From assembly GCA_965195285.1 (NCBI GenBank), contig CBDAFS010000057.1:1-41085 (forward strand): 41,085 bases of DNA. Reading direction: 5' to 3'. Source of the stretch: an uncultured Aminicenantes bacterium. GTDB lineage: Bacteria; Acidobacteriota; Aminicenantia; UBA2199. Below the pieces are notes generated by a model. That model did not search any database. It had not been told where the DNA came from and saw nothing but the letters and a program-made list of their open reading frames with translations. Each line of letters opens with the position of its first letter. The stretch's first letter is position 1. This document shows, piece after piece, positions 8,302 to 32,435 of the stretch. A program made the translations under genes and the position numbers.

Positions 8302-8676
8302 CTAACTTTTCCATAAACCGTGCAAATTACAATACTCACGGGCGGTTACATTGGTGGCTTCAATTTTAAAAATGGCTTCCGGCTTATCACCGGGATTCAA
8401 AAACTGCCGGTAGGCCTGACCATCAACCATCAATTCAATCCACTCGATATAATGGGCCTCTTCCATAGGATGGGCCACACTGCCAACACTGACTTTGTAA
8501 CCGTCTGAGATTTTCTCAATTACCGGCACATGTTTTTCGGTTGCCGCATCAACCGTATTTTCTTTCAACAGGGTCATGGGCTGGCCGCAACAAACCAGTT
8601 CTCCGCCTCCCCCGTGAATCACTTCAACGATATTCCCACAGATTTCACATTTGTAAACCTCTAAACGTTTGGCCAT
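8302..8676 (-). CDS. dfx: Desulfoferrodoxin (2Fe superoxide reductase)
   Basis: CEICGN...CCG desulforedoxin domain; [24 protein letters not shown]. Confidence 0.97.
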
Positions 8677-8724
8677 TGTATTCCTCCTTAGATCTCAAAA
8701 TATCTGATATGTTTTTTATCGTTA

Positions 8725-9240
8725 CTAAACATATTCGGGTTCATAATATTCTTTTGGATGCTGACAGGACGGACATATCTCCGGAGGTTCTGTTCCCTCA
8801 TGGACATATCCGCATTTGCTGCAGATCCATTTTACCGGCTTTTCCCGTTTGTAGAGAGTACCCGATTCCAACATATCCAGTAATCTTTTATAGCGATCGC
8901 GGTGCTGGGCCTCAACTTTGGCGATCTGAGTAAACAACCGGGCTGCATCGGATTGGCCTTCTTCTTCAGCCTCCCTGGCAAATGTCGGATACATCTCGAT
9001 GGTTTCGTAATGCTCCCCCTCGATGGCGGCCAGAAGGTTTGCCCGGGTATCTCCGATTCCCTTCAGCAGCTTGAACTCATCTTTAGCATGCTGCTTTTCA
9101 TTCAAGGCTGTTTCTTCAAAAAATTTGGCAACATAATGATATCCCTCTTTCCGGGCCACCTTGGCGTAATAATCATACTTATTTCTTGCTTGTGACTCGC
9201 CGGCAAAAGCGGTTTTCAGGTTTTGTTCGGTTTTTGACAT
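8725..9240 (-). CDS. rbr: Rubrerythrin
   Basis: AFAGESQA, EKQH and EAQH diiron motifs, C-terminal CSKC...CPSC; ATG 9240 with AAGGAG. Confidence 0.95.
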   Translation of the reverse strand: MSKTEQNLKTAFAGESQARNKYDYYAKVARKEGYHYVAKFFEETALNEKQHAKDEFKLLKGIGDTRANLLAAIEGEHYETIEMYPTFAREAEEEGQSDAARLFTQIAKVEAQHRDRYKRLLDMLESGTLYKREKPVKWICSKCGYVHEGTEPPEICPSCQHPKEYYEPEYV

Positions 9241-9251
9241 TTTCAAACTCC

Positions 9252-9728
9252 TTAATTGGTATTGGTTTTTAATTTCGATAACATGACAAAGTGTTTTCTT
9301 TCTTCATCCACAATTTTATCGATCCGATGGTGTTTGTTTTCCGGGACGATATTTTTGATCTCCTGATAATACAGTATGGAACTCACTTCTGCATCAATGG
9401 CAAAATCAAGGGCTGAAGCGACATCGGAAATTTCTTCCAGTTTTTGATCGAACTCTTTCTGGCTGAAAATAATATTGTCGGCATAACTACGAAGATAAGT
9501 AAAGTATTCACCCGGGTAACTTTCGTGGGGCTCATAGCTCTCAAGGGTTGAGAGTATTTCTTCATAAATCTTTTTATGCCCGACTTCTTCGTTGGCCAGA
9601 AAAGTAAACAATTCCTTGGTCGAGGGTTCCTCGAATTTTTCAACCATTTTGCGGTAAAATTTTTCACCGTTTTCTTCAATTCTAATTGCCAGTTGAAAAA
9701 CTTCACTGGCATCAAACATAATTCCCAT
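9252..9728 (-). CDS. Ferritin-like (rubrerythrin-domain) protein
   Basis: AIRIEENG-x-x-FY, EEVGH, EERKH; ATG 9728 with AAGGAG. Confidence 0.85.
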   Translation of the reverse strand: MGIMFDASEVFQLAIRIEENGEKFYRKMVEKFEEPSTKELFTFLANEEVGHKKIYEEILSTLESYEPHESYPGEYFTYLRSYADNIIFSQKEFDQKLEEISDVASALDFAIDAEVSSILYYQEIKNIVPENKHHRIDKIVDEERKHFVMLSKLKTNTN

Positions 9729-9744
9729 TTTTAACTCCTTTTGT

Positions 9745-10923
9745 TTATATAGTTTCTTGATGTTTGGTAGCGATGGTGTCCGCCAGTTTATCAAGTAACC
9801 CATAATCTGCTGCTTTGGGGTGTCCCTTGATCAATACCGGATCCAGAAATTCCGCTTTCAGGTTACTCAGGCTATTTTGAATCATTTCAAGGGTCCTGCC
9901 CCCCCAGCCATATGAGCCGACAACGGTGGCAAATTTCAATTTGGGTTTCAGAACATTCACCAGGGTCGCCGCATAAACCGCTGCCGGATGTGGGCCGGTC
10001 AAAACCGTGGGCGTCCCTAAAATCAGAGTGGCACTGTCAACCAGTGACATGGCCAACTGTCCCAGATCGGTTTTGATCAAATTAAAGAACTTCACTGAAA
10101 TTCCCTTTTCCATGATTCTTTCCATCAGGTAAAACATCATTTTTTCCGTACTGCCGTGCATGGATACATAGGCAATAACCACCTGGTTCTCAACTTTATC
10201 CGATACCCAGTTCCGGTAGGCATCCAGTATAATCTTGGAGTCCGAATAGACCGGACCATGGCTGGGGGCAATCATTTCAAAATCAAGAGCCTCTATTTTC
10301 TCGATGTTTTTTTTCACCACACCTCTAAAGGGCATCATGATTTCGGCATAATACCTTTTGGCATCCTCAATCACCTTGGCTGGATTCCGGACAAACAGAT
10401 CGCTGGTAGCCAGATGAGATCCGAAAAAATCACAGGAAAAAAGAATTTTATCCTCCGGTAAAAAGGTACACATGGTTTCCGGCCAGTGAACCCAGGGGGT
10501 AAAAATAAATTTCAGGGTTTTATCCCCCAGGGACAGCACATCCCCATCCGAAACGGTTTGAAAGCTGGTTTCCGGGATCTCCATCAGGTCCATTAAAAAT
10601 AACCTGCATTTTTCATTGGCAATCACTTTTGCTTCCGGGTAGATTTCCAACAGATCGGGTATGGAACCGGAATGGTCCTGTTCGGCATGGTTGGAAACCA
10701 GGTAATCAATTTTGGTTACATTCAGTTTTTTCAAGGTAGAGATCAGTTCTTCGGTCTTGGGTGGATCAACCGTATCGATCAGAGCGGTTTTTTCACTCCC
10801 CCTGATCAAATATGAATTATAACTGGTTCCGTCAGGCAGGGGGATCAGCTCATCAAAAAGTCTTCGGTCCCAATCCCTGGAGCCAACCGAAAAAATTCTA
10901 TCTTTTATCCGCTGTACACCCAT
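9745..10923 (-). CDS. fprA: Flavodiiron protein (FprA/rubredoxin:oxygen oxidoreductase)
   Basis: GTSYNSYL, HAEQDHSG, HWPE, SCDFFG, PSHG, then flavodoxin domain with SMHGST and GSYGWGG. Confidence 0.95.
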   Translation of the reverse strand: MGVQRIKDRIFSVGSRDWDRRLFDELIPLPDGTSYNSYLIRGSEKTALIDTVDPPKTEELISTLKKLNVTKIDYLVSNHAEQDHSGSIPDLLEIYPEAKVIANEKCRLFLMDLMEIPETSFQTVSDGDVLSLGDKTLKFIFTPWVHWPETMCTFLPEDKILFSCDFFGSHLATSDLFVRNPAKVIEDAKRYYAEIMMPFRGVVKKNIEKIEALDFEMIAPSHGPVYSDSKIILDAYRNWVSDKVENQVVIAYVSMHGSTEKMMFYLMERIMEKGISVKFFNLIKTDLGQLAMSLVDSATLILGTPTVLTGPHPAAVYAATLVNVLKPKLKFATVVGSYGWGGRTLEMIQNSLSNLKAEFLDPVLIKGHPKAADYGLLDKLADTIATKHQETI

Positions 10924-11081
10924 TACTCTTCCTCAAACATGTCTTTTCCGACTCCACACAAGGGGCAAACCCAGTCATCGGGTATGTTCTCGAAGGCAGT
11001 CCCCGGTTTAATACCTGAATCCGGATCACCGATTTCGGGATCATAAACATAACCACAGGCTGTGCATACGTACTTTTTCAT
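10923..11081 (-). CDS. rub: Rubredoxin (52 aa, absent from the ORF track)
   Basis: Hand translation [52 protein letters not shown]; AAGGAG RBS; TAATG overlap with the fprA start. Confidence 0.97.
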
Positions 11082-11110
11082 ATTTTCTCTCCTTTTGAAC
11101 TTTTGTTATA

Positions 11111-11566
11111 TTATAAAACATTTTTAGTTTTTTTTTCCTTATTTTTTAAACAATTTCGGCAAGTGCCCCTGAATTGAACCTGGACTTCCTCAATCTTATG
11201 TCCCTGAATGGAATTTTTTTGATACAGTGGAATCTTCAAATCGACATCGATGATTCGATTGCATTGATGGCAATAAAGATGGGCATGGGGGAACTCTATG
11301 ATATCATACCGTGTCTCCGATTTATTGGTTTTAATGCTGGACAAGATTCCTTTTCGCACAAATATATTTACATTATTGTATACAGTTGTTCGTGAAAGGG
11401 TAGGAATACTTCGAGAAATATTTTTAAAAATAGTTTCCGCAGACGGATGATTTTTGTTTTTCATTATGTACTCCAGTATGAGCAATCTCTGGTATGACGG
11501 CTTGATGCCTTTCGAACACAACAAATCCCTGAACTCACCATGAACACCATAATGTCTGTCCGTCAT
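11111..11566 (-). CDS. perR: Fur-family regulator, probably PerR
   Basis: QRL-x-I, HPSAE, S-x-x-TVYN, HAH-x-x-CHQC, CRNC; heads a peroxide/superoxide-defence operon; GGAGGT RBS supports ATG 11566 or 11569. Confidence 0.8.
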   Translation of the reverse strand: MTDRHYGVHGEFRDLLCSKGIKPSYQRLLILEYIMKNKNHPSAETIFKNISRSIPTLSRTTVYNNVNIFVRKGILSSIKTNKSETRYDIIEFPHAHLYCHQCNRIIDVDLKIPLYQKNSIQGHKIEEVQVQFRGTCRNCLKNKEKKTKNVL

Positions 11567-11600
11567 CATAAACCTCCGACATCGGTAAAATAAATACCAC

Positions 11601-11639
11601 AATATTGTAATAAGTACAATCTAAACTTATTACAATATT
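11601..11639. promoter_or_regulatory. Probable PerR/Fur operator: perfect 15-bp inverted repeat with 9-bp spacer
   Basis: AATATTGTAATAAGT 11601-11615 and ACTTATTACAATATT 11625-11639; contains near 7-1-7 TTGTAAT-A-AGTACAA; covers the predicted +1. Confidence 0.65.
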
Positions 11640-11669: not shown

Positions 11670-11717
11670 CACCTATTTCATTTTCCAGGTTTGTGGTATT
11701 ACCGGAATATTATCAAA

Positions 11718-11746
11718 TTGACAAAGCCTCGAAATGTTGATATGGT
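11718..11746 (+). promoter_or_regulatory. Sigma70-type promoter of the rseC-like gene
   Basis: TTGACA-17 nt-TATGGT with TGn extension. Confidence 0.55.
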
Positions 11747-11771
11747 TATTCCAATCGGATTTTGCATAAAA

Positions 11772-12209
11772 ATGAATACTGAAGAGGGAACTGTCACCAA
11801 AGTAGAGGGGCATAAGGCCTTTGTTATGGTGGCCAGAAGCGAGATGTGTGATGGTTGTGGAAGCCGGGGAATTTGCCATACCCTCGGAGGAGGCAAAAAT
11901 ATGGAAGCCGAAGCCATCAACACGGTTCAAGCCAAGGCGGGTGACCGGGTTCATCTGTCCATAAAACCGGGAATTTTGTGGAAGATTTCCCTCCTGTTCT
12001 ATATGATTCCGGTTATCGCTCTCGTTTCGGGAGCCCTGATTGGAATCGAAATAGGACCCAGATTGAATTTTGACCCCGAATTATTTTCTGCTTTTCTGAG
12101 TATTTCTTTTGCCGCCCTATCCTATATTATCATAAGATTTATTGCCAACCGCTTAAAGGAAAAAAGAGATTTTATGCCGGAAGTGGTCAGAATTGTCAAC
12201 CCCGGATGA
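11772..12209 (+). CDS. rseC: RseC/MucC family membrane protein
   Basis: EEG-x-V, CDGC-x4-C, GD-x-V, YMIP and two C-terminal TM helices; start moved to ATG 11772. Confidence 0.85.
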   Translation: MNTEEGTVTKVEGHKAFVMVARSEMCDGCGSRGICHTLGGGKNMEAEAINTVQAKAGDRVHLSIKPGILWKISLLFYMIPVIALVSGALIGIEIGPRLNFDPELFSAFLSISFAALSYIIIRFIANRLKEKRDFMPEVVRIVNPG

Positions 12210-12499: not shown

Positions 12500-13045
12500 T
12501 CAGTAAACCAAAGCCCGTTCGATCAAACTGGCACAACTGCGACAAAACGAACAGGACTTCACATCGGTATCGATTATATTATTGGAGGGATACATGATGC
12601 AATTTTTATCACTGCAATGGAGCAGTCCAAACAGATGTGAAATTTCATGTATGACCTCTTTTTCACATCTCGATAGAAACAGGGTTTCATCCTCTGCCAG
12701 ACCGTAATATTCCTGACCAAGGCGATGCAATGAAATGAGCGCACAACACCCCCCCAACTGAGCCTCTCCAAAAAAACAGGAGAAGATGGGTGAGTAGAGA
12801 TCCAATTCGGCAATGGCCACTAACTTGAATATTTTCCCGGGCAGGCATTCATATAATTGCTTAAGCAGTTTTGTGGAATTGTATTTTCCCCCAAAGACCG
12901 GTTCGGGTACGCAGCCGATTAAATCCTGACAGGGGATCAGGTGAGTATTGAGGTTAAATGTGGTTTTTATGGACTGGCTGATATAATCCAAAAGCGAATC
13001 ATCTATATCACCAATCGGAACCAGGGTGATTTTTTTTTCTATCAT
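12500..13045 (-). CDS. Archaemetzincin-family (M54) zinc metalloprotease
   Basis: FGEA, HEISHLFGLLHC (HExxHxxGxxHC), CIM Met-turn, FCRSC; start directly abuts the upstream stop. Confidence 0.9.
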   Translation of the reverse strand: MIEKKITLVPIGDIDDSLLDYISQSIKTTFNLNTHLIPCQDLIGCVPEPVFGGKYNSTKLLKQLYECLPGKIFKLVAIAELDLYSPIFSCFFGEAQLGGCCALISLHRLGQEYYGLAEDETLFLSRCEKEVIHEISHLFGLLHCSDKNCIMYPSNNIIDTDVKSCSFCRSCASLIERALVY

Positions 13046-14392
13046 TCATTTTTTAATTTTATATTTTTTTATTTTGTTATACAGGGTGGCCCGGTCAATA
13101 CCCAGTTCTGCTGCGGATTTTGAAATATTCCAGCCATTATCCTCTAAAATCCGGGAGATGTGGCTTTTTTCAGATTCATCCAGGGTTCGGGGAGTCGATT
13201 CTTCCTTGCCCTTTTGGACAACTTCGGTCAAATCATTGGATATGATTTCATCTGTCTTGCTGACCACCACCGCTCGTTCAATCACATTCTCCAGCTCCCG
13301 GATATTTCCCGGCCAATGATAACCGATCAACACCTTCATGGCCTCACCGGAGATTCCATTGATTTTTTTCGAATTGGCCATGGTATATTTATGCAAAAAA
13401 TGATTGGCCAGCAGCGGTATATCTTCTCTTCTTTCTCTCAAGGGAGGGACATTGATGGGCACCACATTCAGACGATAATATAAATCCTCACGAAACTTGC
13501 CCTCCCGGGCATCTTCCTCAAGATTCCGGTGGGTTGCAGATATAATTCTGATATCCACTTTGATGGGTTGGGTACTGCCCAGACGGTAGATATGTTTTTC
13601 TTGCAAAACCCTCAATAGAGCGACCTGGGTCTTGGGACTGATATCCCCGATTTCATCCAGGAACAGGGTTCCCCCGCTGGCCATCTCAATCCGACCCTTT
13701 CGACTGTGCTCGGCACCGGTAAACGCACCTTTTTCATAGCCAAACAATTCACTCTCAAGGAGAGTTTCGGGTAAGGCACCGCAGCTTAATGCAACCAGAG
13801 GACCGTATTTTCGTTTGCTGTTTGCATGAATGGCCCTGGCAATCAATTCTTTTCCGGTCCCGCTTTCTCCCCTGATCATCACTACAGCCTCTGAGTCGGC
13901 AACGGTTTTGATCAATTCAAATATCTCCTCCATTTTCTTGCTCCTGCCAATTATTTCATCAAAGCCGTACTTTTTTTCCAGTTCCTTCTTCAGCAGAATA
14001 TTCTCTTTTTCCAGCATCTTATATCTGATTGCCCTTTCAATTACCTGACTGACGCTTTCCGGATCAAAGGGTTTTACAATATAATCAAAAGCACCGTCTT
14101 TCATGGCCTGGACCGCCGTATCTACAGAGGCATAGGCCGTCATGACCAGTATGGGAAAGTCCGGATAAATTTCTTTGCTTAATTTCAACAATTCTATGCC
14201 GTCCATACCCGGCATTTTTATATCCACCACAGCCAGATCAAAGGTGTCGGTTTTTATCTTTTCCAGGGCATCATGCCCGTTATCAATGGTATCGACCTGG
14301 TATCCCTCTTCCAGGAGCCAGTTGCCCATGGAATCACGAACAATCATGTCATCATCAACAACCAGGATTTTGATGCTATTTTTTAAAGACAT
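13046..14392 (-). CDS. Sigma54-dependent response regulator (NtrC/AtoC/ZraR family)
   Basis: Receiver (VDDD, DIKMP, KPF), [38 protein letters not shown], Fis-type HTH. Confidence 0.96.
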
Positions 14393-14404: not shown

Positions 14405-16018
14405 CTATTCGTTTATTTCCCCAACCGGAAGCATAATGAAGAAGGTGGTCCCCTTACCCACTTCACTCTCCACCTTTATGGTGCCCTTGTGTTCCTGAAT
14501 GATGCCGTAAGCCACAAATAATCCCAGGCCGGTGCCTTTCTCAGCCTCTTTGGTGGAAAAAAACGGATCAAAAATATACTTGAGATTTTTGCGGGGAATG
14601 CCATCTCCACTATCTTTCAACACGATTTCAACCTTCTTGCCATGGGCACTCTTGGTTTCAATGGAAAGCTTTCCTCCCTTGGGCATGGCTTCCTGGGCAT
14701 TGATGAGCAAGGCTATAAGGGTTTGCTGAATCTGTTTGAAGTCACAGTATATGTTGGGAATCCCATCCTGTAGTTTCAAATCCAGTTCAATATTCTGGAT
14801 CCGGATCTTATTTGACAGCAGCACCAGACTGTTTCTGATGATACTGTTAATATCGGATTTTCTGATTTCCAGTTTCGATTGCCTGGAAAAAACCAGCAGG
14901 TTTTTCACCATACCACCCAGCCTCTCGATCTCATCTCCCATCAGGTTCAAATACTTTTTAAAATCGGTAAGGGTACTCCCCTTGACTTCATCACCGGATG
15001 CTTTTTTTAACATCAATTTAATATAGGTTAAGATACCCTGTAAAGGATTGTTAATCTCATGGGCAACCGAGGATGCCAACACTCCTAATGAAGCCATCTT
15101 TTCCGATTGAATCAGCTGTTCCCGGGCCACTCTTAATTTATTGGTCCGTTCCTCCACTTTTTTTTCCAATTCAATATTCCAGGACTGGATTTCTTGATTG
15201 GCTTTTCTTAAATCCTTGATCATCTTATTGAATGAATTGGCCAGATACCCGATCTCATCATGGGTGTTTACCTGGGTATCAACGGTCAGATTTCCGGTGG
15301 AAACCTGCTGGGTGGCTCTGACCAGTATTTTTACTGGTTTTGTTACCAATCGATGAATAAATAATGTCAATATACCCGAAACAGATAATATGGCAATCAA
15401 TGTGAAATAAATGATAATTCTGCGATTGGAACTATAGTCATTATCCACATCAACCAGAGACATTCCAATATCCAGAACCCCCAGAACCCTCTGTTTTTTC
15501 GGATGAGCATGACATGTGGCATTGTAACAATCCGGTTCATTATAAATGGGTGTGATCATGGCTAATACCCGGTGATCTTCGGATTTAAATATCCGGCTCC
15601 GTTCGGAAGTGGACAATCGCTCCAGGGGTTTTTCCACCGCATGACAAACATAACAGGCTTCGGCATTCTTATCCACGAAATGGTTCATTTCCTTTTTATT
15701 GGTGGAGAACATGATGTTCCCCTCTTTATTAAATATGCGTACAAATTCAATACCCTCTTGAATCCCCTTGGTTTCAATCATCCGGTGCAATCCTTCGCGA
15801 TTGTTTATAAGCATATCATACCTGGTGCTGGTGGTAACAGTATTGCTATAGGTGCCGGCTGCACGAAATACTTCAGCTATGAGTTGTTTATTTTGATTGG
15901 TCAGGATGATATAGAAAAAAATTCCGAAAATTATTACCGATACTGCAACTATGGCAAATATCAGTTTGGAATTGATTGTCTTAAACATATCCAGCTTAAT
16001 CCCGGTATGCCCAATCAT
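14405..16018 (-). CDS. Membrane sensor histidine kinase with extracytoplasmic heme-c motifs and HAMP
   Basis: Two TM helices flanking CYVCH and CYNATCH; HAMP (DEIG-x-LA-x-SFN-x-M); AHEINNPL; DSGDG, FDPFFSTK, GTGLGL; start may be ATG 15988. Confidence 0.93.
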   Translation of the reverse strand: MIGHTGIKLDMFKTINSKLIFAIVAVSVIIFGIFFYIILTNQNKQLIAEVFRAAGTYSNTVTTSTRYDMLINNREGLHRMIETKGIQEGIEFVRIFNKEGNIMFSTNKKEMNHFVDKNAEACYVCHAVEKPLERLSTSERSRIFKSEDHRVLAMITPIYNEPDCYNATCHAHPKKQRVLGVLDIGMSLVDVDNDYSSNRRIIIYFTLIAILSVSGILTLFIHRLVTKPVKILVRATQQVSTGNLTVDTQVNTHDEIGYLANSFNKMIKDLRKANQEIQSWNIELEKKVEERTNKLRVAREQLIQSEKMASLGVLASSVAHEINNPLQGILTYIKLMLKKASGDEVKGSTLTDFKKYLNLMGDEIERLGGMVKNLLVFSRQSKLEIRKSDINSIIRNSLVLLSNKIRIQNIELDLKLQDGIPNIYCDFKQIQQTLIALLINAQEAMPKGGKLSIETKSAHGKKVEIVLKDSGDGIPRKNLKYIFDPFFSTKEAEKGTGLGLFVAYGIIQEHKGTIKVESEVGKGTTFFIMLPVGEINE

Positions 16019-16115: not shown

Positions 16116-17048
16116 TTATCGGGTATACAAATGTTTTTTGACCAGTTCATTCCACTTTTCTCTGGACAGGTTTTTGCTGATATCAGCAGCCACGACTGCT
16201 CCATCATGAAAGGTGACACCGGTCTCGGATTGAATACTCTGGCTTAGCAAATTGGCCTCTTCCTCCATCCAGGCAGTGGCTTCCTTATCCTTCAAAAGGT
16301 TCTTCAAATTTTTCGCTACGCTACTGACATCCATGGTGACAAACCATCCATCGGTATAGGGTTTTTCGACAGCCAGGCTGGCATCATCCAGCAGTTTTTG
16401 ATTGACCGAATCAACCACACCGGAAATGGGTGAGAAAAATTCCAGATCACCATGGTCATGGTTTACTATCCAGGAATACTCTTCCAGTTCCAGATTTTTT
16501 CCCACGGCCGGTAATTCGATCTTATTGATTTTACCGATTATTCTTCTGGCAAAATCATCAATTCCAATCCTGAACTTTCCATTTCTTTCCAGATAAACCC
16601 AGGTGTGATTGCGAAAATAATAAAGTCTTTCCGGTAAATAAAACCCCGCCACTTTGGGAAGTTGCTCCATTTCCCCGACAAATGACGGTTGAATCCGGTC
16701 CTGCATCATCTGGTCAAATGAGCATTCCCCGCAACGGAAACTATTGGGACAGATTTTATGAGACACCTCGCCACTGATCATATACCGGCATTTTCTCTGA
16801 TCTGCAGGCAGGTGGCGGAATTCTTCCATCCACTCGACAACCGCTTTCTTGTTACTGGCTGTCGGTTTATGATCATGCAAATTCTGCTTGGTCTGTTGGG
16901 CCCGGTTGGACATGGCCAAATCAAACTCACAGGTACTGCATTGATAGTGGTTGGTGCATAATTTGTAGGAAACCACCCCGGCTTCCATCCATATACACTT
17001 CCGTTCTCCGGTCGGAATCACCTTCAATCCTCTTTTTTGTTCATTCAT
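16116..17048 (-). CDS. GcvH-fold protein lacking the lipoyl-lysine, with two N-terminal Cys4 repeats
   Basis: HTWV, IGIDDFA, IELP-x-VG, SPISG-x-V-x-x-VN and PY-x-x-GW match glycine-cleavage H; ESVK position reads NHDH; two C-x12-C-x5-C-x2-C-x-FD repeats; AGGAGG RBS. Confidence 0.85.
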   Translation of the reverse strand: MNEQKRGLKVIPTGERKCIWMEAGVVSYKLCTNHYQCSTCEFDLAMSNRAQQTKQNLHDHKPTASNKKAVVEWMEEFRHLPADQRKCRYMISGEVSHKICPNSFRCGECSFDQMMQDRIQPSFVGEMEQLPKVAGFYLPERLYYFRNHTWVYLERNGKFRIGIDDFARRIIGKINKIELPAVGKNLELEEYSWIVNHDHGDLEFFSPISGVVDSVNQKLLDDASLAVEKPYTDGWFVTMDVSSVAKNLKNLLKDKEATAWMEEEANLLSQSIQSETGVTFHDGAVVAADISKNLSREKWNELVKKHLYTR

Positions 17049-17095: not shown

Positions 17096-17112
17096 AGCAA
17101 ATCTTATGCCAA
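17096..17112 (-). promoter_or_regulatory. Sigma54 (-24/-12) promoter
   Basis: TTGGCATAAGATTTGCT matches TGGCAC-N5-TTGCW with exact GG-N10-GC spacing, about 48 bp upstream of the GcvH-like start. Confidence 0.8.
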
Positions 17113-17259: not shown

Positions 17260-17300
17260 CTGTTGAATTTCTCAACACCGACTGTTGAATTTCTCAACAC
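17260..17300. promoter_or_regulatory. Tandem palindromic upstream activator sequences (bEBP enhancer)
   Basis: CTGTTGAATTTCTCAACAC at 17260-17278 and 17282-17300, identical, 22-bp period; each is TGTTGA-N5-TCAACA (TGT-N11-ACA). Confidence 0.75.
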
Positions 17301-17329: not shown

Positions 17330-18322
17330 TTAAAATCTTTTGGTAAAGATATGGCAATAGGGAGTTCCATTCTTTTTGAAGTAATAACTCTGGTGATAAT
17401 CCTCGGCTTTCCAAAACACCAATGCCTCGGTCACCCGGGTAACCACCCGGTATTCCTTGGATTTCAGGATATCAATTAATTTCAAAGCGGTTTGTTTTTG
17501 TTTATCGTTCAGATAAAAAATCTCCGACCGGTACTGCTCACCGATATCAGGTCCCTGACGATTCAACTGGGTGGGATCATGGGTTTCAAAAAACAGCTTG
17601 GCCAGTTCCTCGTAACTTACGATCTCAGGAACAAAGACAACTTCCACGGCTTCGGCATGGCCGGTGGTGCCGATGCATACTTCTTTATAAGTTGGATTTT
17701 TGGTATGTCCCCCGGTAAAACCGACGGTGGTTTCCAGCACCCCCCTGCGCCTCTGCATATGGTATTCCGTTCCCCAGAAACATCCGGAGGCAAAAATGGC
17801 CCGTTCGGTTTTTTCCAGGGACACAAAATTTAAAGAAATGGAATTGACACAATGCCGGATATTTTTGACGGTGAATTTCTCCCCTTTAAAAACATGACCC
17901 AGGTGAGCCCTGCAGCGATTACACAAGATTTCGGTTCGCAGTCCATCGGTATCCGGTAACCGCTTTACCGCATTGTAAATCTCATCATCAAAACTGGGCC
18001 AGCCACAACCCGAATCAAACTTATCCTCGGATTTGTAAAGCGGGGCATCACACCGTTTGCATATATAATACCCTTTGGCTTTGTGGTCATGGTATATACC
18101 GGTGAAGGGCCTCTCCGTTGCTTTATGTACAATCACCCGTTCCTCTTCCGGAGTGAGTGGGTTATATTTCATGGCTTTCGTATCCTCCTTACTCGATTTG
18201 CTCTGGCTCTGAACCTGAAACACCTGGACGAATACAAAAACCGAAATCATGAGTCCGATGGTGGACCACAATGGTTTATGGGAAAAAAATCCGGTTTTCT
18301 CACCATTTCGTCTTTCTGGCAT
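17330..18322 (-). CDS. msrAB: Bifunctional methionine sulfoxide reductase, MsrB-MsrA order, with N-terminal signal/anchor
   Basis: TERPFTG, CKRC, SGCGWPSF, CNRC, HLGHVF, RHCVNS; then GCFWG, GHAEAV, QYRS, AEDYHQ. Confidence 0.95.
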   Translation of the reverse strand: MPERRNGEKTGFFSHKPLWSTIGLMISVFVFVQVFQVQSQSKSSKEDTKAMKYNPLTPEEERVIVHKATERPFTGIYHDHKAKGYYICKRCDAPLYKSEDKFDSGCGWPSFDDEIYNAVKRLPDTDGLRTEILCNRCRAHLGHVFKGEKFTVKNIRHCVNSISLNFVSLEKTERAIFASGCFWGTEYHMQRRRGVLETTVGFTGGHTKNPTYKEVCIGTTGHAEAVEVVFVPEIVSYEELAKLFFETHDPTQLNRQGPDIGEQYRSEIFYLNDKQKQTALKLIDILKSKEYRVVTRVTEALVFWKAEDYHQSYYFKKNGTPYCHIFTKRF

Positions 18323-18378: not shown

Positions 18379-21300
18379 TTAGAGATCGCACCGTAGGCAA
18401 CGCTTGGCATCATTGACACAGGATTTTTCAGACAATCCCAGTTCAACCTCATCAAAACCTTTGATTCGCTTCAATGCACTCAAGCAGGGCATCTTATCTC
18501 TCTTCAATTTCTCGAGTTCTTCATCGGGAACCTCAATGGGCTCTATCAGTCTTTTGGGCCGCACCGATCTGAAGTGCCAGGGTATTTTGATACCATTGAA
18601 ATAGCCGTTTATGGCAGCGGCTGCCCGCTGACCGGCAGCAATGGCTTCAATAATGGTTGCAGGTCCGGTAACCGCATCTCCTCCGGCAAAAATTCCCGGG
18701 ATACTGGTTTCCAGGGTATTGGGGTCGACCTCAAAGGTATTCCAGGCCGTGATATCAAAATTCATATCTTTTAACAACTCAGCCAGGTCGGGTTCCTGGC
18801 TGATGGCCGGGATAATGACATCGCAGGAGATAATAAACTCAGAGCCTTCAACCGGAACCGGGCGTCTTCTGCCACTGGCATCGGGTTTCCCCAGTTCAGT
18901 CCGGACACATTCCAAACCGGTCACCCGATTCTTGGCCCCGATAATTCGTTTGGGGGCAACCAAGACATGCAGTTTCACACCTTCTTCCTCAGCCGCATCA
19001 ATTTCTTCTTTAAAAGCCGGCATTTCAAATCTGGATCGACGGTAGGCAATGCTGACCTCCGAGACACCGATTCTAACGGCAGTTCGGGCTGCATCTACCG
19101 CTGAATTACCTCCACCGATCACGATTATTTTATCCCCCGGTTTTTTTCGGTTACCAAAATTCACATTCTGCAGGAAATCAATGCTATCGATAAAACCTTC
19201 ATATTTGTCCTCGCCGTAAACACCGAGTTTTCTACCCTTGAAGGCTCCGACAGCCAAAAATACGACATCATAACCCTGTTTTTTTAATTGATTTATGGTT
19301 ATGTCTTTTCCAATTCGGGTACTGGTTTTTATTTCGATGCCCAGGGCAGCAATGGCATCTATTTCGGCTTTGATCACATTCCGGGGCAGACGATACTCTG
19401 GTATGCCGGCAACCATCATACCACCGGGAATCGGCAGGGCTTCGAAAACCGTTATCGTATAGCCCATTTGTCTTAAATAAAAAGCTGCGGTAAGTCCGGC
19501 CGGCCCGGCTCCGACAATCGCCACCTTCTCGTTTTTTGTAACGGGTAAAGGTTTTATATGTTTTGCTCTTTCCAACTCCAGGTCGGCAACAAATCGCTTT
19601 TGATACATAATGGCAATCGGTTCATCCACCTCTCCCCGGGTGCATTCAAATTCACATGAATGGGTGCAGGCTCGCCCGCAAATCGAGGGGAAGGGATTGT
19701 CTTCGATGATGAGGTCCAGGGCATCCTCGTACCGTTTATGAGCAATCAGCGAGACATAACTGGGAACATCAATACCGGCCGGGCAGGCATTCTGGCAGGG
19801 AGCGGGTGTGAGCCGCTTGCAAACCATGGCCGGGCATCTTTTCTCAATGATATGGGCTTCATACTCTTCCCTGAAATATTTGATGGTGGTCAGAACCGGA
19901 TTCGGGGCCGTCTTGCCCAGTCCGCAAAGGGAAGCATCAATGATGGTATCACTGAGACGTTGCAGGGTGTCAAGGTCCTCCATTTTCCCGTTTCCATCTG
20001 AAATTCTCTCCAATATTTCCAGCATGACCTTGGTTCCGACCCGGCATGGTGTACATTTCCCGCAACTTTCTTCTGCTGTAAAATGCAGAAAAAATTTGGC
20101 GATATCCACCATACAACTGGTCTCATCCATGATCACCATTCCACCGGAACCCATTATGGCCCCGGTCTCATTTATGGAATCATAATCAATGGGAATATCA
20201 AACATTCTTTCAGGAATACAACCACCCGAAGGACCGCCCAACTGGGCAGCTTTTATCTGATTGCCCTGAACGCCGCCGCCACCGATATCATAGATGGCCT
20301 TCCTCAAAGACATACCCATGGGAACCTCAATGAGTCCGGTGTATCGGACTTTTCCGGCCAAGGCAAAGACCTTGGTGCCTTTACTTTTGTCGGTTCCGAT
20401 GGCCGCATAGGCTTCAGGTGAATCCACAATGATTCGAGGAAGATTGGCCAGGGTCTCCACATTGTTGACCACGGTGGGTTTTTTATACAATCCTTTTATG
20501 GGCGGGAAGGGGGGTTTGGGCCTGGGCATGCCTCGCTGATCTTCTATGGAAGCAATCAAAGCGGTTTCTTCACCGCATACGAATGCCCCGGCTCCTTCCC
20601 TGACACTGATATCGAAGGAGAAATCACTGTCCAGAATATTATTGCCCAAAAAATTTTTCTCTCTGGCATCGGCCAGGGCCTTGTCCAGGGTTTTCAGGGC
20701 CAAGGGATATTCGGCCCGACAGTAAATGAAGCCTTCGGTTGCCCCAATGGCATAACCGGCGATAATCATTCCCTCCAGTACCGAGTGGGGATCGCCTTCC
20801 AACAGGGAGCGATCCATGAAGGCTCCCGGATCACCTTCATCGGCATTGCAAATCACATATTTTTTGTCTGATTTGACATTCCGGCAGAAGGTCCATTTTT
20901 TTGCCGTGGGAAAACCAGCACCCCCACGGCCCCGGATACCGGATTTTCCAACCTCTTCAATAACTTCTTCCGGGGTCATCTTCAGTATTTTTATTGTGGC
21001 CTGGTAACCACCGGTTTCCAGGTAATCTTCAATACTGAAAGGATCAATATTTCCGCAATTCTTCAGGGCAATTTTTACCTGATCCTTGACCACACTATAT
21101 TCATCTATGAAGGGTACACCCTCATAGGCCTGCTGTTCCTTACTTTCGGGATGATATTGATACAATACGTTTTCTTTAACAACCTGTCCGTTTTTAACTG
21201 TTTTCTCGACAATGGCAGGAACCGATTCGGGAAGAATATTTCCATAGGTCAGCCGGGTTCTTCCATCCAATTCCAATTCAGCAACAACCTCCTGGGAACA

Positions 21301-21435
21301 CAGTCCGATACATCCAGTTGACCCTATTTTAACAGACAGTTTGCTATTTTCAATTTCAGCCAGGAATGCATTGTAAACATCCATTCCACCTGCCGCTCTT
21401 CCGCAGGTTGCCATTCCGATTTTTATAACAGACAT
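18379..21435 (-). CDS. NuoF/HydB-like FMN-NAD(H) subunit fused to a GltD/NfnB-like FAD-NADP(H) module
   Basis: GRGGAGFPT, NADEGDPGAFMDR, GGPSGG, ESCGKCTPC, EAH-x5-CPAMVC; then PCQNACPAGIDVP, GAGPAG, GGGNSA-x-DAAR, YRR, FAGGD, RCLRC; start ATG 21435 or GTG 21447. Confidence 0.9.
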   Translation of the reverse strand: MSVIKIGMATCGRAAGGMDVYNAFLAEIENSKLSVKIGSTGCIGLCSQEVVAELELDGRTRLTYGNILPESVPAIVEKTVKNGQVVKENVLYQYHPESKEQQAYEGVPFIDEYSVVKDQVKIALKNCGNIDPFSIEDYLETGGYQATIKILKMTPEEVIEEVGKSGIRGRGGAGFPTAKKWTFCRNVKSDKKYVICNADEGDPGAFMDRSLLEGDPHSVLEGMIIAGYAIGATEGFIYCRAEYPLALKTLDKALADAREKNFLGNNILDSDFSFDISVREGAGAFVCGEETALIASIEDQRGMPRPKPPFPPIKGLYKKPTVVNNVETLANLPRIIVDSPEAYAAIGTDKSKGTKVFALAGKVRYTGLIEVPMGMSLRKAIYDIGGGGVQGNQIKAAQLGGPSGGCIPERMFDIPIDYDSINETGAIMGSGGMVIMDETSCMVDIAKFFLHFTAEESCGKCTPCRVGTKVMLEILERISDGNGKMEDLDTLQRLSDTIIDASLCGLGKTAPNPVLTTIKYFREEYEAHIIEKRCPAMVCKRLTPAPCQNACPAGIDVPSYVSLIAHKRYEDALDLIIEDNPFPSICGRACTHSCEFECTRGEVDEPIAIMYQKRFVADLELERAKHIKPLPVTKNEKVAIVGAGPAGLTAAFYLRQMGYTITVFEALPIPGGMMVAGIPEYRLPRNVIKAEIDAIAALGIEIKTSTRIGKDITINQLKKQGYDVVFLAVGAFKGRKLGVYGEDKYEGFIDSIDFLQNVNFGNRKKPGDKIIVIGGGNSAVDAARTAVRIGVSEVSIAYRRSRFEMPAFKEEIDAAEEEGVKLHVLVAPKRIIGAKNRVTGLECVRTELGKPDASGRRRPVPVEGSEFIISCDVIIPAISQEPDLAELLKDMNFDITAWNTFEVDPNTLETSIPGIFAGGDAVTGPATIIEAIAAGQRAAAAINGYFNGIKIPWHFRSVRPKRLIEPIEVPDEELEKLKRDKMPCLSALKRIKGFDEVELGLSEKSCVNDAKRCLRCDL

Positions 21436-21449
21436 TCTTCTAACCACCC

Positions 21450-21959
21450 CTATTTATCTTCATTTTCAGAAGCCTCTCGACAGGACTCGATAACTGCTTT
21501 TACCTGATCAATATCAAGTTTACCGTAAACTTTGTCATTCACCATCATGGCCGGTGCCAGTGCGCAGCAACCGAGACAGGCCACATTCTGGACCGTAAAG
21601 AGCCGATCCTCGGTGGTTTCATTATCCTCATCCAGTTTCAGATAGGATCTGAGCTTCTTGCCCAGAACTTTGGAACCGCCCACATGACAGGCCGTTCCAT
21701 TGCAAGCTTTTATAATATTCTTCCCCACCGGGATAGTGCTGAACTGTGAATAAAAGGTGATGACTCCATAAATATGACTCTCGGCAACATGCATTCTTTC
21801 GGAAAGATACCTAATGGCAAATTCGGGCACATAACCGAATTCAGATTGAATTTTCTGCAAAAGAATCATCAGAGAATTTGCTATAGAATATTTTTTAAAA
21901 ATTTCCCCGACCACTTCCATTTCTTCATTTGACAAGGATACAGTCTCTTGCGTCTGCAT
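21450..21959 (-). CDS. NuoE/HydC-like [2Fe-2S] subunit
   Basis: V-x-TFY, CNGTACH...CLGCC. Confidence 0.92.
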   Translation of the reverse strand: MQTQETVSLSNEEMEVVGEIFKKYSIANSLMILLQKIQSEFGYVPEFAIRYLSERMHVAESHIYGVITFYSQFSTIPVGKNIIKACNGTACHVGGSKVLGKKLRSYLKLDEDNETTEDRLFTVQNVACLGCCALAPAMMVNDKVYGKLDIDQVKAVIESCREASENEDK

Positions 21960-21961
21960 GA

Positions 21962-23968
21962 TTACTCCGCCTCCTTGAACCTCTTTTTGACAAGATCCTG
22001 TAAATCATGGCAATACTCTGCCAGCACTTTTTGATAATCCGTCCTGATAAATCCTGTTGGGGTCTTCACCATATCTTTCCAGACAATCTCTGTTTTCCGG
22101 TTTAATTTCTGACCCTCTTCTTGTAACGAATCATAAGTAATATCCTGGAAACAGGAAAATTTCTTTGCAATTTTCTGCTCCCAGATTTCCCTGCTGGTGG
22201 AGAAATCCCATTTTAAACCCATTCTCTTGGCTAACTCATTGAAAATCCACCCGGATGGTTTGGCTTCTCCCGGGGCATTCACGACCCGGCGGATCAAATT
22301 GATTCGAAAATCAGAACCAACGGTTGTTCCTTCATGTTCCACCCACACCGAGGCCGGTAAAACCAGGTCTGCTTTTTCCTGTGCCACAGAAGGAAAGATA
22401 TCCTGAACCACCAGAAATTCCACTGAATCGGGAAGCGGGCTTTGATGATTCATGGTGTACAATAATTTCAATTTTCCCATATCCAGATCATTCCGGGGCA
22501 ACAAACCCAACAAATAAGCTCCCGCTGTATTGTTTTCTCGGCTTATGGAGAAAATTTTCAGGCCTTCTCTTTGGTTTATTCCGGAGATATCTGTATCCGG
22601 ATCATGAAACAAAAGGGTTTCACCGTTTATTTCCTTTTCTATATCGGCTAGATTTTCCAGCCGGACCCGGGCAAACTTGGACAGTTCGGTATTCTCCATA
22701 TTCACGGTAACCAGTTTGGCACCGTTCAGGACCGCCTGTTTGACAAATGTGGCCGCAACCGGATTATCCCGGGTCATATCCATATTGACGACCACAATAG
22801 TCTGGGCGTTTTTTACATCCTCGTAATCCAGACCCATAAAGGCCGGTGATTCAAAATGAAACACATTATCCCCGGACAGGGCCTCATCAAAAAACTTTTT
22901 TACTTGAAACAGATCTTCATTCTTCTCTTTGGTGGATACCAGACATCCGATCGCTTCGGGACCGTATTTGTCTTTGACTTCATTGATCTTGGCAGCCAGC
23001 CAATCCAGAGCTGCTTCCCAGGTTGTTTCAACCAGTTTCCCCTTCTGCCGGATCATGGGTTTGGTCAGCCGGTCTTCGGAGTGAATAAAATCAAAGGCAA
23101 AACGACCTTTAAAGCACAGTCTGCCTCGATTGGGCAGGCCATCTTCCACACCGTCAACCTTCACGATCTCATTATCCTTTACAAACAGGTCAAGCTGACA
23201 TCCCACCCCGCAATAATGACAGGTAGTCCTGACATGCTTTATATCCCACATCCGGTAATTGAATCGATTCCGCTTTTCAAAGAGGGCACCCACCGGACAA
23301 CTCTGGATACATTCACCGCAATACACACAATCCGAATCAGGCAGGGTGAGGTCCCCCCTGACCACAATCTTGGCAATATTGCCCCGGTAGCCGTGGGACA
23401 GGGCATTGTTCACCTGGATTTCACAGCAGGCCTGGACACATCGACCGCACAGAATACATCGTCCAAAATCCCTACCGATCAGAAGATCATCATACTCGAG
23501 TGGATATTTGGTGGGAATCCGGTCCATTGTTCTCTCAGTTACTCGATATTTATAGGCCAGGGCCTGCAATTCACATTGACCATAAGCCACACAGATATCA
23601 TCCGCCTGGTCATACTCAACCACATCTTTCTGAAAATCCGACCATTCCTGGGGAAAATTCCCCCGGATCGAACAGTTATGATTCCCGGAAATGAGTAAGA
23701 GTTCTATGACCATCTGGCGTGCTTTGACAATTCGGGTCGATTCGGTAAAGATTTCCATACCATCGGCAGCAGGAGAGGAACAGGATGCAATCGGTCCCGG
23801 TGCCCCCTTGACCTCAACAATACAGACCCGGCAGGCTCCGGTGGGGGGGGCCCCCTTTAAATGACAGAGGGTGGGGATATCAATTCCATTTCCCCTGGCC
23901 ACTTCCAGAATGGTTTCCCCGGATTCAAACTCACATTGTTTTCCGTTTATTGTGATTATATTAGCCAT
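21962..23968 (-). CDS. NuoG/FdhA-like Fe-S subunit with truncated molybdopterin-oxidoreductase domain
   Basis: IPTLC...GACRVC [2Fe-2S]; H-x-C...C...C cluster; CILCGRC and CVYCGEC; TTCHYCGVGC...LCFKG; no catalytic Cys/Sec-His segment and no C-terminal MGD-binding domain recognised. Confidence 0.85.
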   Translation of the reverse strand: MANIITINGKQCEFESGETILEVARGNGIDIPTLCHLKGAPPTGACRVCIVEVKGAPGPIASCSSPAADGMEIFTESTRIVKARQMVIELLLISGNHNCSIRGNFPQEWSDFQKDVVEYDQADDICVAYGQCELQALAYKYRVTERTMDRIPTKYPLEYDDLLIGRDFGRCILCGRCVQACCEIQVNNALSHGYRGNIAKIVVRGDLTLPDSDCVYCGECIQSCPVGALFEKRNRFNYRMWDIKHVRTTCHYCGVGCQLDLFVKDNEIVKVDGVEDGLPNRGRLCFKGRFAFDFIHSEDRLTKPMIRQKGKLVETTWEAALDWLAAKINEVKDKYGPEAIGCLVSTKEKNEDLFQVKKFFDEALSGDNVFHFESPAFMGLDYEDVKNAQTIVVVNMDMTRDNPVAATFVKQAVLNGAKLVTVNMENTELSKFARVRLENLADIEKEINGETLLFHDPDTDISGINQREGLKIFSISRENNTAGAYLLGLLPRNDLDMGKLKLLYTMNHQSPLPDSVEFLVVQDIFPSVAQEKADLVLPASVWVEHEGTTVGSDFRINLIRRVVNAPGEAKPSGWIFNELAKRMGLKWDFSTSREIWEQKIAKKFSCFQDITYDSLQEEGQKLNRKTEIVWKDMVKTPTGFIRTDYQKVLAEYCHDLQDLVKKRFKEAE

Positions 23969-26014: not shown

Positions 26015-26614
26015 TCATTTCATCATATACGCCTGAAGCGAATTATCAATCCCCAAAAATCCGTAAAAGGCCAGGGCCATCAGGCCTGCCATTACCAGGG
26101 CAATGGCCGTATCCTGAAGGGCTCGCGGAATAAAGGATATCTCAAACCTTCCCCGGATCCCGGCAAAAAGAATCAAAGCCAGCGTAAATCCGGCCCCTGA
26201 AAATAGTGCATAAAAAAGACTCTGCAAAAAATTAAATTCATTATTGATGCAAAGGACCGCCACACCCAGAATGGCGCAATTGGTGGTGATGAGGGGCAGA
26301 AAAATCCCCAATGCCTTATACAGGGCAGGAGCCAGTTTTTTCAGGAACATTTCGATCAGCTGAACCAGGGCTGCAATCACCAGAATAAAGACAACGGTCT
26401 GGAGATATTCAATCTGCAGGATTACCAGGATATAATGATACACAAACCAGGTGATACTGGTGGCAAAGGTCATAACGAAAATCACGGCCATGCCCATTCC
26501 GGTGGCGGTTTCCATTTTTTTGGAAACCCCCATAAAGGGACAATTCCCCAAATACTGGGCCAGAAGAATGTTTTTTACCAAAATAGCATTGATGGCCAGG
26601 ATAATATATTCCAT
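26015..26614 (-). CDS. rnfA: Rnf complex subunit A
   Basis: YLGNCPF, LGIFLPLITTNCAILG. Confidence 0.95.
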   Translation of the reverse strand: MEYIILAINAILVKNILLAQYLGNCPFMGVSKKMETATGMGMAVIFVMTFATSITWFVYHYILVILQIEYLQTVVFILVIAALVQLIEMFLKKLAPALYKALGIFLPLITTNCAILGVAVLCINNEFNFLQSLFYALFSGAGFTLALILFAGIRGRFEISFIPRALQDTAIALVMAGLMALAFYGFLGIDNSLQAYMMK

Positions 26615-26626
26615 TTAAAACTCCAT

Positions 26627-31202: not shown

Positions 31203-31210
31203 GATTCCTC

Positions 31211-32432: not shown

Positions 32433-32435
32433 ATA

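Follow-up and report, generated by a model that had tools for sequence, protein, structure and literature searches.

Sigma-54 systems with one dedicated accessory output include ZraSR-ZraP and PspF-PspA, and we know of no prokaryotic archaemetzincin (peptidase M54) for which a physiological substrate has been established. Here, we analyse a 310-amino-acid (aa) open reading frame (ORF), hereafter the target, together with the two-component and M54 genes beside it, on contig CBDAFS010000057.1 (assembly GCA_965195285.1) of an uncultured Aminicenantes bacterium; the whole stretch of DNA analysed, 41,085 nucleotides (nt) long, is referred to as the window. The target contains a domain of the glycine cleavage H protein (GcvH) fold. 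Two GcvH-like, lipoate-binding proteins are described in other settings in the accessible text of the respective sources: LbpA, recruited from glycine cleavage to the Hdr-like system of sHdr sulfur oxidation (PMC6067878), and GcvH-L of Staphylococcus and Streptococcus, which belongs to a redox-stress system (PMC12440151). For bifurcating enzymes of the NuoEF type, the accessible text of Schut et al. 2022 (PMC9304861) gives 18 of 57 Bfu clades as uncharacterised, and mentions neither an H-protein or lipoyl-type subunit nor a histidine kinase; that of PMC12316311 does not mention "glycine cleavage" or "GcvH". A description of the target family was not found in the literature covered, which excluded subscription journals and supplements.

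We propose that the target is an inducible, probably iron-sulfur (Fe-S), redox accessory for flavoenzymes of the NuoEF/GltD type, and that the neighbouring M54 protease binds or processes it; we assign this explanation as a whole a probability of about 0.55. It falls within the "redox sensor, adaptor or carrier" suggested in a first-pass annotation of the same sequence, a wording broad enough to fit the results reported below. That annotation did not touch on the predicted sigma-54 control of the target by the two-component system beside it, on M54 as a constant partner, or on the occurrence of the Cys module as a separate domain, both in signalling proteins and after a BfuA/NuoG-type Fe-S wire.

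An H-protein fold without the lipoyl lysine

The target is composed of two Cys modules, an H-protein domain and a C-terminal extension (Table 1). The first-pass annotation had described it as a GcvH fold that cannot be lipoylated, joined to a duplicated Cys4 motif, and both of the Cys stretches and the VNHDHGDL hairpin on which it relied are present in the translation. Pfam GCV_H matches residues 142-263 (E 8.9e-21; 74.5 bits, cut-off 22.2). The structural alignment that the annotation had recommended bears out the fold: with an AlphaFold2 model built from 88 homologues, in which the H-protein core and two C-terminal helices reach a predicted local distance difference test score (pLDDT) of ~90-95, the best Foldseek match was the E. 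coli H-protein 3a8i_E (template modelling (TM) score 0.93, root-mean-square deviation (rmsd) 1.1 Å, 125 columns). All 22 chains found at E <= 0.001 were H-proteins, and the GcvH-L structure 5a35 was among the Foldseek matches. Eight residues of the fold (H148, W150, G162, D165, P207, G210, N216 and W235) are invariant in 88 aligned family members.

A gapless phmmer alignment sets NHDH of the target over ESVK of 3a8i_E, placing His199 at the position of the lipoyl lysine, in accordance with the earlier claim that the hairpin has none. Across 197 family members this position is occupied by G (81), Y (47), H (18), F (15), N (13), S (11), L (5), K (3), Q (2) and A (2), and it is K in one of the 88 aligned members. 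None of the hairpin columns in these 88 sequences contains a conserved Lys; the maximum is 22/88 at position -4, where the target has no Lys, and 78 of 197 members have a Lys somewhere between -12 and -4. Judging from its sequence, the target cannot carry lipoate at the canonical site. The two hairpin histidines that had also been pointed out are indeed present in the target, but they vary within the family (H in 10/88 at position -8; H in 47 and R in 36 of 88 at position -10). We therefore consider them a feature of the lineage, and rejected the pair as a conserved, family-wide metal site.

Database entries name members of the family "glycine cleavage system protein H", yet the target scores below the NCBI equivalog cut-offs (TIGR00527, 75.9 against 115.85; NF002270, 79.9 against 117), so that the warning against such an annotation was well placed. 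The same is true of the remark that no gcvP, gcvT, gcvL or lipoate ligase gene lies nearby: a Pfam search of the 37 other ORFs in the window detected none, and no glycine cleavage context was seen in the related loci examined. The genome (3.28 Mb, 94.9% complete) contains three GCV_H matches, corresponding to a canonical GcvH, the target, and a GcvH-like domain fused to a receiver (REC) domain. The canonical gene, with an ESVK hairpin, belongs to a gcvT-gcvH-gcvP operon on another contig (C62), and a gcvH above the equivalog cut-off was present in 41/41 sampled genomes of the phylum (40/40 without G024, which is flagged unpublished). In a tree of 77 H-fold domains, 25 canonical sequences were separated from all 51 Cys-module-associated ones by a branch of length 0.74, with a Shimodaira-Hasegawa-like approximate likelihood ratio test (SH-aLRT) support of 96; this was a quick, unrooted search over 128 columns, with domain boundaries taken from a profile built on the target family. 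The REC-fused domain has a long branch in this tree and its placement is uncertain. By fold, residue and phylogenetic comparison, the target is thus best described as a repurposed H-protein fold, and not a glycine-cleavage H protein.

The REC-fused protein is an observation in its own right. It has 266 aa (G000 contig C49, L082:1495-2295, minus strand), with an N-terminal receiver domain and an Asn at the lipoyl position, and its gene lies directly downstream of one for a HAMP-HisKA-HATPase kinase. Here, the H-protein fold serves as the output domain of a response regulator.

A duplicated Cys4 module that recurs as an independent domain

The eight Cys residues of the two modules are invariant in the 88 aligned homologues, bearing out the duplication first noted, and 187 of 198 family members contain two exact CX12CX5CX2C motifs each. 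A search of a 90%-clustered protein set with the target returned 533 matches, and among the best 120 nearly all were full-length proteins of ~300-320 aa. We found no Pfam or NCBIfam model that matches the Cys module, and no known Fe-S or Zn-finger family model either. A look-up of residues 1-125 in the ESM Atlas gave a best score of 0.79, which is under the meaningful level.

Standalone short forms of the N-terminus gave 10 matches in the 90%-clustered set, several of them labelled partial; short forms, among others, were recovered by a subsequent profile search. This profile of the Cys repeat, proposed in the first-pass annotation as a means to map its distribution, identified 878 proteins at E <= 0.001 among 1.84 billion representatives (144 at <= 1e-10, and 7 at <= 1e-30). 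Forty representatives, picked for odd length or module position, were scanned for other domains. Sixteen combined one or more Cys modules with GCV_H, one of these also having ferredoxin domains; 12 contained a REC domain, with or without tetratricopeptide repeats (TPR), followed by two Cys modules (hereafter REC-Cysx2); two contained TPR and Cys modules; one joined TPR and a Cys module to HisKA-HATPase; and nine had no Pfam match. The Cys module thus appears, from these architectures, to be an unnamed independent domain.

We additionally scanned 80 loci for REC-Cysx2 genes and identified four of full length (L094-L097) and one Cys part (L139), the rest being receiver domains only. The L094 gene follows a HydS-type kinase and a sigma-54 regulator, and stands behind a TGGCAT-N5-TTGA element. 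Two further proteins (L091:2023-2853 and L092:1989-2867) have a hydrophobic N-terminal stretch, by eye a likely membrane anchor, followed by one Cys module and a GcvH-like domain.

A predicted dedicated sigma-54 promoter and a conserved two-component cassette

Upstream of the target lie a sigma-54 -24/-12 promoter and, ~150-190 nt further upstream, a pair of tandem operator palindromes (Table 1). The promoter element (TGGCAY-N5-TTGCT) was recovered upstream of the target gene in 75 of 78 regions, against 2/78 for the reverse complement and 14/1560 for shuffled sequences. Loci of the Thermodesulfobacteriota have an identical 6-N5-6 operator layout with the half-site TGCCGA, i.e. between clades the operator position is kept and the half-site changed. 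Exact copies of TGTTGA-N5-TCAACA occur three times in the 3.28-Mb genome, two of them upstream of the target; the third, on C62, was rejected as a regulon site as it forms the stem of a terminator-like hairpin. The operator pair accompanies the promoter of the target alone among 54 sigma-54-like sites in the genome.

One other promoter was considered and not counted as a second site of this regulon, as its operator differs (TGTTAA-N5-TTAACA). It lies at ~10230-10390 of G000 contig C9 (plus strand), where a sigma-54-type element, TGGCATTATACTTGCA, precedes a 340-aa ORF with an N-terminus that is receiver-like by eye, and a 162-aa ORF. Its palindrome is probably the operator of a different activator.

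Downstream of the target, the same strand encodes a histidine kinase, an NtrC-type sigma-54 response regulator and an M54 protease. Kinase and regulator come closest to the NCBIfam models AtoS/AtoC and ZraS/ZraR, with scores below the cut-offs of these models. We compared this arrangement with 80 related loci (two without a target call) from Aminicenantes, Neomarinimicrobiota, Calditrichaceae, many Thermodesulfobacteriota and others, with ORFs called by a crude greedy longest-ORF procedure and labelled by phmmer against the window proteins. Of 73 judgeable loci, 62 have M54 immediately upstream of the target gene and in the same orientation. The full set of kinase, regulator and M54 is found upstream of the target gene in 48 of 59 loci; three more have the kinase and regulator only, probably through ORF picking, and eight are without the full set. 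The window and locus L005 contain the same four genes in a circularly permuted order. On the coding strand the junction between target and kinase in the window contains no terminator-like hairpin, and sigma-70-like matches there are not above chance (7, against 4.1 +/- 1.8); read-through from the target, and hence putative autoregulation of the cassette, may therefore occur. Taken together, promoter, operators and gene order mark the target as the predicted sigma-54 output dedicated to the adjacent cassette of kinase, NtrC-type regulator and M54.

The input domain of the kinase differs between lineages. Kinases of the clade to which the window belongs have a transmembrane (TM) segment, a periplasmic region, a second TM segment and HAMP, while others have sCache_3 or cytoplasmic PAS-PAS-GAF domains, and in related cassettes a HydS-type [FeFe]-hydrogenase domain is fused to the kinase. 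In 11 aligned kinases of the window clade, the periplasmic region (within residues ~40-200) contains an invariant CxxCH motif (C122, C125, H126) and a C-x4/5-CH motif (C164, C169, H170, plus H172), which suggests that it may be a c-type heme sensor of redox state or gas. Two kinases elsewhere (L088:9130-11001, minus strand, and L094:1473-3422, plus strand) have a HydS-type input made up of Fe_hyd_lg_C and an "FeS" domain, and are paired with sigma-54 regulators; we regard these pairs as two-component systems that may sense hydrogen and that have a defined output gene.

Association with an archaemetzincin-type protease

The M54 protein retains the catalytic HExxHxxGxxH, Met-turn and Cys4 residues, which are invariant in 61 sequences. 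Among 151 sampled genomes of the phylum, the Cys-region profile was found in 13 and M54 in 53. All 13 genomes with a Cys module contain M54, versus 40 of the 138 others, and in 10 of the 13 the two genes occur on one contig, 1.3-4.5 kb apart; we attach no p-value to this co-occurrence, as the relatives are not independent. Cassettes with an output lacking the GcvH domain and extension (the REC-Cysx2 loci L094 and L095) have no M54.

A complex between M54 and the target was predicted with interaction scores (ipSAE) of 0.71, 0.70 and 0.66 (median 0.70). Replacing the partner (two controls) or M54 (one control) gave a score of 0.00 in each case. The alignments comprised 61 rows for M54 and 88 for the target, partner pLDDT was 73-75, and contacts agreed to >=93% between runs. 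In calibration, a score at this mark was obtained for 116 of 157 solved complexes, compared with 2 of 215 mismatched pairs; the use of our own alignments makes these counts only a rough guide. The modelled interface involves residues 58, 61-62, 65, 84-97, 101, 130, 133-134, 137, 142-143, 153-157 and 159-160 of M54, among which are the catalytic H133, E134 and H137 and the edge strand 84-97, and residues 132, 135, 268-269, 272-273, 275-288, 290 and 293-294 of the target. Part of this surface, loop 277-283, has a pLDDT below 50 in the monomer model of the target. The prediction supports M54 binding the target as a substrate or pseudo-substrate.

A sister family fused to ferredoxin domains in NuoE-NuoF operons

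In the class of the window organism, we identified an operon (L088) that encodes a HydS-kinase, M54, a sigma-54 regulator, a 121-aa one-module protein, NuoE, NuoF and a 427-aa fusion protein, and a similar operon is present in L093; in both, sigma-54-type elements precede the first Cys-module gene. The 427-aa protein combines Fer2_4, two 4Fe-4S sites, one Cys module and GCV_H, and shares the C-terminal extension of the target. Used as a query, it gave 5428 matches at E <= 1e-10 among 8000 candidates scored. The best 120 all have GCV_H and ferredoxin domains and come from many phyla, and many matches beyond these 120 may be generic ferredoxin-domain proteins. Across 78 aligned members, the four Cys of the module show the same invariance as the twelve Cys that belong to the three canonical clusters, and the hairpin has no conserved Lys (position -7 is K in 39, R in 25 and H in 12).

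The fusion protein was modelled with a mean pLDDT of 90.6, and 84-90 for its Cys module. Its first ~245 residues match subunits of the BfuA/HydA/NuoG type, best 9mqx_A (Z 21.3, rmsd 3.0, 211 aligned positions, model residues 1-221), followed by 9bov_A (Z 18.8), 8a6t_A (17.5) and 8oh5_C (17.5), and residues ~250-380 match H-proteins with a Z of about 18. Sequence profiles of the solved BfuA-type chains stop at ~190-206, which in the fusion is where the module starts.

A locus scan with the fusion alignment also caught generic ferredoxin patterns and yielded five true members of the fusion family among 82 loci. Four of the five fusion genes with context directly follow NuoE-NuoF, and in two loci there then follows a 1170-aa 2-oxoacid:ferredoxin oxidoreductase joined to a GltD-type module. 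In these two loci (L174:8631-12140 and L176:8455-11967), the 1170-aa protein comprises POR_N, TPP_enzyme_C and a GltD-type flavin module; a gene for the POR gamma subunit follows, NuoE-NuoF and the ferredoxin-Cys-GcvH fusion precede it, and upstream are genes for a pyridoxal phosphate (PLP) enzyme and an aminotransferase. A gene of the window type comes after the fusion gene in L175, and on the contig of the closest relative (L001) a fusion-type paralogue, msrBA and the target occur in a row.

In the window itself, genes for NuoE and a NuoF-GltD fusion lie 1.3-4.9 kb upstream of the target in the same orientation, separated from it by msrBA. Of 78 window-type loci, 17 have a NuoF/GltD-type gene, which is often directly downstream. 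The link of the NuoF-GltD, NuoE and BfuA-like genes to the target would follow from the context seen in these other loci.

Proposed function and alternatives

In the proposed mechanism, the NtrC-type regulator presumably occupies both TGTTGA-N5-TCAACA operators and activates transcription from the sigma-54 promoter, 47 nt before the target. The signal would be supplied by a kinase of which the input is swapped between lineages (CxxCH, HydS, Cache or PAS-GAF), the regulator, M54, promoter and Cys-module gene remaining constant. Each CX12CX5CX2C module of the induced protein would hold a metal centre with a redox function, most likely an Fe-S cluster. In the sister family, one module and the GcvH-like domain come directly after the [2Fe-2S] + 2x[4Fe-4S] wire of a BfuA/NuoG-type subunit whose gene follows those for NuoE and NuoF, and this position at the end of an Fe-S wire makes the target most likely an inducible electron-transfer or redox-coupling accessory. 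Its enzymes would be NAD(P)H/ferredoxin flavoenzymes of the NuoEF/GltD type, such as those of the Fdh-NuoE-NuoF/GltD genes immediately upstream. Finally, M54 is predicted to grip the invariant D282-G283 loop of the target in its catalytic cleft, so that the target could be a substrate, subject to C-terminal processing or turnover, or a pseudo-substrate.

Several results weigh against this explanation. CX12CX5CX2C is no canonical ferredoxin motif, Zn is also possible as the metal, and both modules of the target have a pLDDT below 50 in the monomer AlphaFold2 model. The BfuA-type N-terminal [2Fe-2S] + [4Fe-4S] ferredoxin domain is absent from the target by Pfam, which argues against direct wiring to NuoEF, and the 17 of 78 loci are the only ones with a GltD-type gene within 6 kb, many Desulfobacterota loci having none. 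M54 occurs in 40 genomes without the Cys module and is thus not specific to it, and the complex score is a measure of model confidence that does not separate substrate from inhibitor. The locus counts come from crude ORF calls in relatives that are not independent. In addition, the forms of the module found as a response-regulator output or a kinase input fit signalling or protein binding at least as well as electron transfer.

This last point leads to the main alternative, which we regard as possible but doubtful and in which the target is a second-tier signalling protein and not a redox carrier. The Cys modules would then be Zn- or Fe-S-dependent output or sensor domains that bind protein or nucleic acid, with the GcvH-like domain for docking, and the induced target would feed back on the kinase or regulator, or control other targets, in the manner of PspA or ZraP. 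The REC-Cysx2 and TPR-Cys-HisKA-HATPase architectures agree with it, as do the sigma-54-type promoter of the REC-Cysx2 gene beside its pair of HydS-kinase and sigma-54 response regulator, the REC-GcvH-like fusion next to a kinase in the same genome, the restriction of the operator pair to the target, and the position of the kinase, regulator and M54 genes downstream of it without an intervening terminator-like hairpin. However, the very large fusion family, with the module ending an Fe-S wire in NuoE-NuoF operons, is hard to read as pure signalling, and no DNA-binding family in Pfam or NCBIfam matches the Cys module. Regulated proteolysis is a further alternative, which we judge unlikely: the target would be chiefly a substrate or regulator of M54, its C-terminal extension being released or destroyed, or holding the protease inactive, with the Cys modules structural and Zn-bound. 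The complex prediction (0.70, against 0.00 for the best control), with the D282-G283 loop in the catalytic cleft, and the co-occurrence and adjacency of M54, which is absent where the output has no extension, favour this view, but it is compatible with the explanation proposed above; L025, L050 and L062 retain the target and its promoter with no M54 within 6 kb, and eight invariant Cys and the ferredoxin fusions imply a function beyond being cut. It is scarcely credible that the target carries lipoate or another acyl group on a non-canonical Lys, or acts as a decoy competing with GcvH for the other glycine-cleavage proteins (P, T or L). Preservation of the H-protein core is indeed high, and some members do have a Lys near the hairpin, but none of these is conserved, the window protein has none at -4, and neither a gcv or lipoate-ligase gene in the window nor a glycine-cleavage context in the loci examined accompanies the target.

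The redox-accessory explanation can also be put in a bolder form, which we think rather improbable. Here, the Cys4 module and the Lys-less H-fold would constitute a new terminal acceptor unit of NuoEF/Bfu-type enzymes, with an Fe-S or dithiol centre in place of the ancestral lipoyl arm, coupling NAD(P)H and ferredoxin pools to enzymes of the GltD, 2-oxoacid-oxidoreductase or Fdh type. The unit would be matured or inactivated by a dedicated archaemetzincin cutting at the D-G loop, which would give this protease family its first assigned physiological substrate in prokaryotes, and the whole would be switched by a modular sigma-54 system with heme-c and HydS-type sensors.

Members of the family are named "glycine cleavage system protein H", "2Fe-2S cluster-binding protein" or "hydrogenase diaphorase subunit", and number hundreds to thousands of proteins. 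They occur in at least nine differently labelled lineages, including Aminicenantes, Neomarinimicrobiota, Calditrichaceae, Thermodesulfobacteriota, Planctomycetota, Elusimicrobiota, Zixibacteria, Flavobacteriales and metagenome-assembled genomes of Chloroflexota type. If our interpretation is correct, metabolic reconstructions of anaerobic sediment and subsurface bacteria that count these genes as glycine cleavage are wrong, and the Cys4 domain, with its 878 representative clusters, merits a family of its own. Testable handles would also be available on the roles of some uncharacterised NuoEF/Bfu-type complexes, on the cleavage targets of prokaryotic archaemetzincins, for which the complex model predicts a specific candidate, and on what the sensory-hydrogenase and heme kinases with sigma-54 regulators control in these organisms.

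Features of the target locus and other genes of the window

Table 1. Positions in the window of the target, its predicted control elements and the genes discussed with it.
Feature	Positions	Strand	Basis or remark
Target ORF (310 aa): Cys module 1, Cys module 2, Lys-less GcvH-fold domain, C-terminal extension	16116..17048	-	
Cys module 1, residues 14-46; C18, C31, C37, C40; CX12CX5CX2C	16911..17009	-	Invariant in 88 sequences
Cys module 2, residues 83-116; C87, C100, C106, C109	16701..16802	-	Invariant in 88 sequences
GcvH-fold domain, residues 138-264	16257..16637	-	Pfam GCV_H; Foldseek; tree
Hairpin IVNHDHGDLE, residues 194-203; His199 at lipoyl-Lys position	16440..16469	-	Alignment
C-terminal extension, residues 265-310, conserved; E264, D282, G283, W299 invariant	16119..16256	-	88-sequence alignment
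Loop, residues 275-288, including invariant D282-G283	16185..16226	-	Predicted in M54 catalytic cleft; complex model
M54 (archaemetzincin-type) metalloprotease, 181 aa; HEISHLFGLLH, Met-turn, Cys4 site; start abuts stop of regulator	12500..13045	-	
NtrC-type sigma-54 response regulator: REC, AAA+ sigma-54 activator, HTH_8	13046..14392	-	Pfam, NCBIfam
Histidine kinase: TM, periplasmic domain, TM, HAMP, HisKA, HATPase	14405..16018	-	Pfam
Sigma-54 -24/-12 promoter TGGCATAAGATTTGCT, ends 47 nt before ATG	17096..17111	-	Sole exact TGGCAYN5TTGCW match in 41-kb window
Tandem operator palindromes TGTTGA-N5-TCAACA, presumed sites of the adjacent sigma-54 activator	17261-17277 and 17283-17299	.	Two of three exact copies in genome
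NuoF-GltD fusion	18379-21447	-	Candidate partner, upstream of target
NuoE	21450-21959	-	Candidate partner, upstream of target
BfuA/FdhA-like subunit	21962-23968	-	Candidate partner, upstream of target

Other genes of the window were noted in passing. A fused MsrB-MsrA (17330-18322, minus strand) lies directly upstream of the promoter region of the target, and a second group (8302-11602, minus strand) comprises a desulfoferrodoxin, two rubrerythrin-type genes, a flavodiiron-type protein and a Fur-family regulator; together these are an oxidative-stress set around the cassette. An RseC/MucC-family gene lies on the opposite strand (11691-12209, plus strand), as it also does in 9 of 78 related loci. 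Further upstream of the target, a 669-aa protein (23992-26001, minus strand) joins an RnfB-like "Putative Fe-S cluster" domain and a 4Fe-4S dicluster to a GltD-type module (Fer4_20 and Pyr_redox_2); its gene ends an rnfCDGEA-like row (26015-29974), and a gene for a class III cytochrome c (29980-30672) comes before this row. A further small kinase and receiver pair is encoded at 30816-31909. The region 31953-40851 contains NiFe-hydrogenase large and small subunits, FAD/NAD-binding and Fer4_22 subunits, a HycI protease, and HypB-, HypE- and HypD-type genes. The first 2000 nt of the window have a GC content of 0.307, against 0.41-0.49 in the remainder.

Comparison with known systems

With GcvH (PF01597, TIGR00527), the target shares the fold and the core motifs HxW, G..DDFA, SPxxG and PYxxGW. 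It differs from GcvH in the loss of the lipoyl Lys, the two N-terminal Cys4 modules, the C-terminal extension, the sigma-54 control and a context without gcvT or gcvP. LbpA and GcvH-L, as presented in the accessible parts of the sources cited above, bind lipoate, whereas the target family has lost the Lys and carries Cys4 modules; no ligase-type domain, as would accompany a system of the LbpA or GcvH-L kind, was found in the window.

The BfuA, HydA and NuoG subunits of bifurcating NuoEF enzymes have in common with the sister fusion family the N-terminal [2Fe-2S] + 2x[4Fe-4S] domain. They end in a hydrogenase, formate-dehydrogenase or other catalytic domain, whereas the fusion ends in a Cys4 module and a Lys-less H-fold, and in the target a second Cys module stands where the fusion has its ferredoxin domain.

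The M54 protein of the window resembles archaemetzincins (NF033823; 135.6 bits) in its HExxHxxGxxH motif, Met-turn and Cys4 site, and departs from them in scoring slightly under the NCBI cut-off (145), in its length of ~180 aa, and in being encoded in a two-component operon. Finally, the cassette as a whole resembles ZraSR-ZraP and PspF-PspA in that an NtrC-type activator is encoded beside a single sigma-54-dependent gene with paired upstream operators. It is distinguished from both by a cytoplasmic output with eight Cys and an H-fold, by the M54 protease, and by sensors that have been swapped between lineages.

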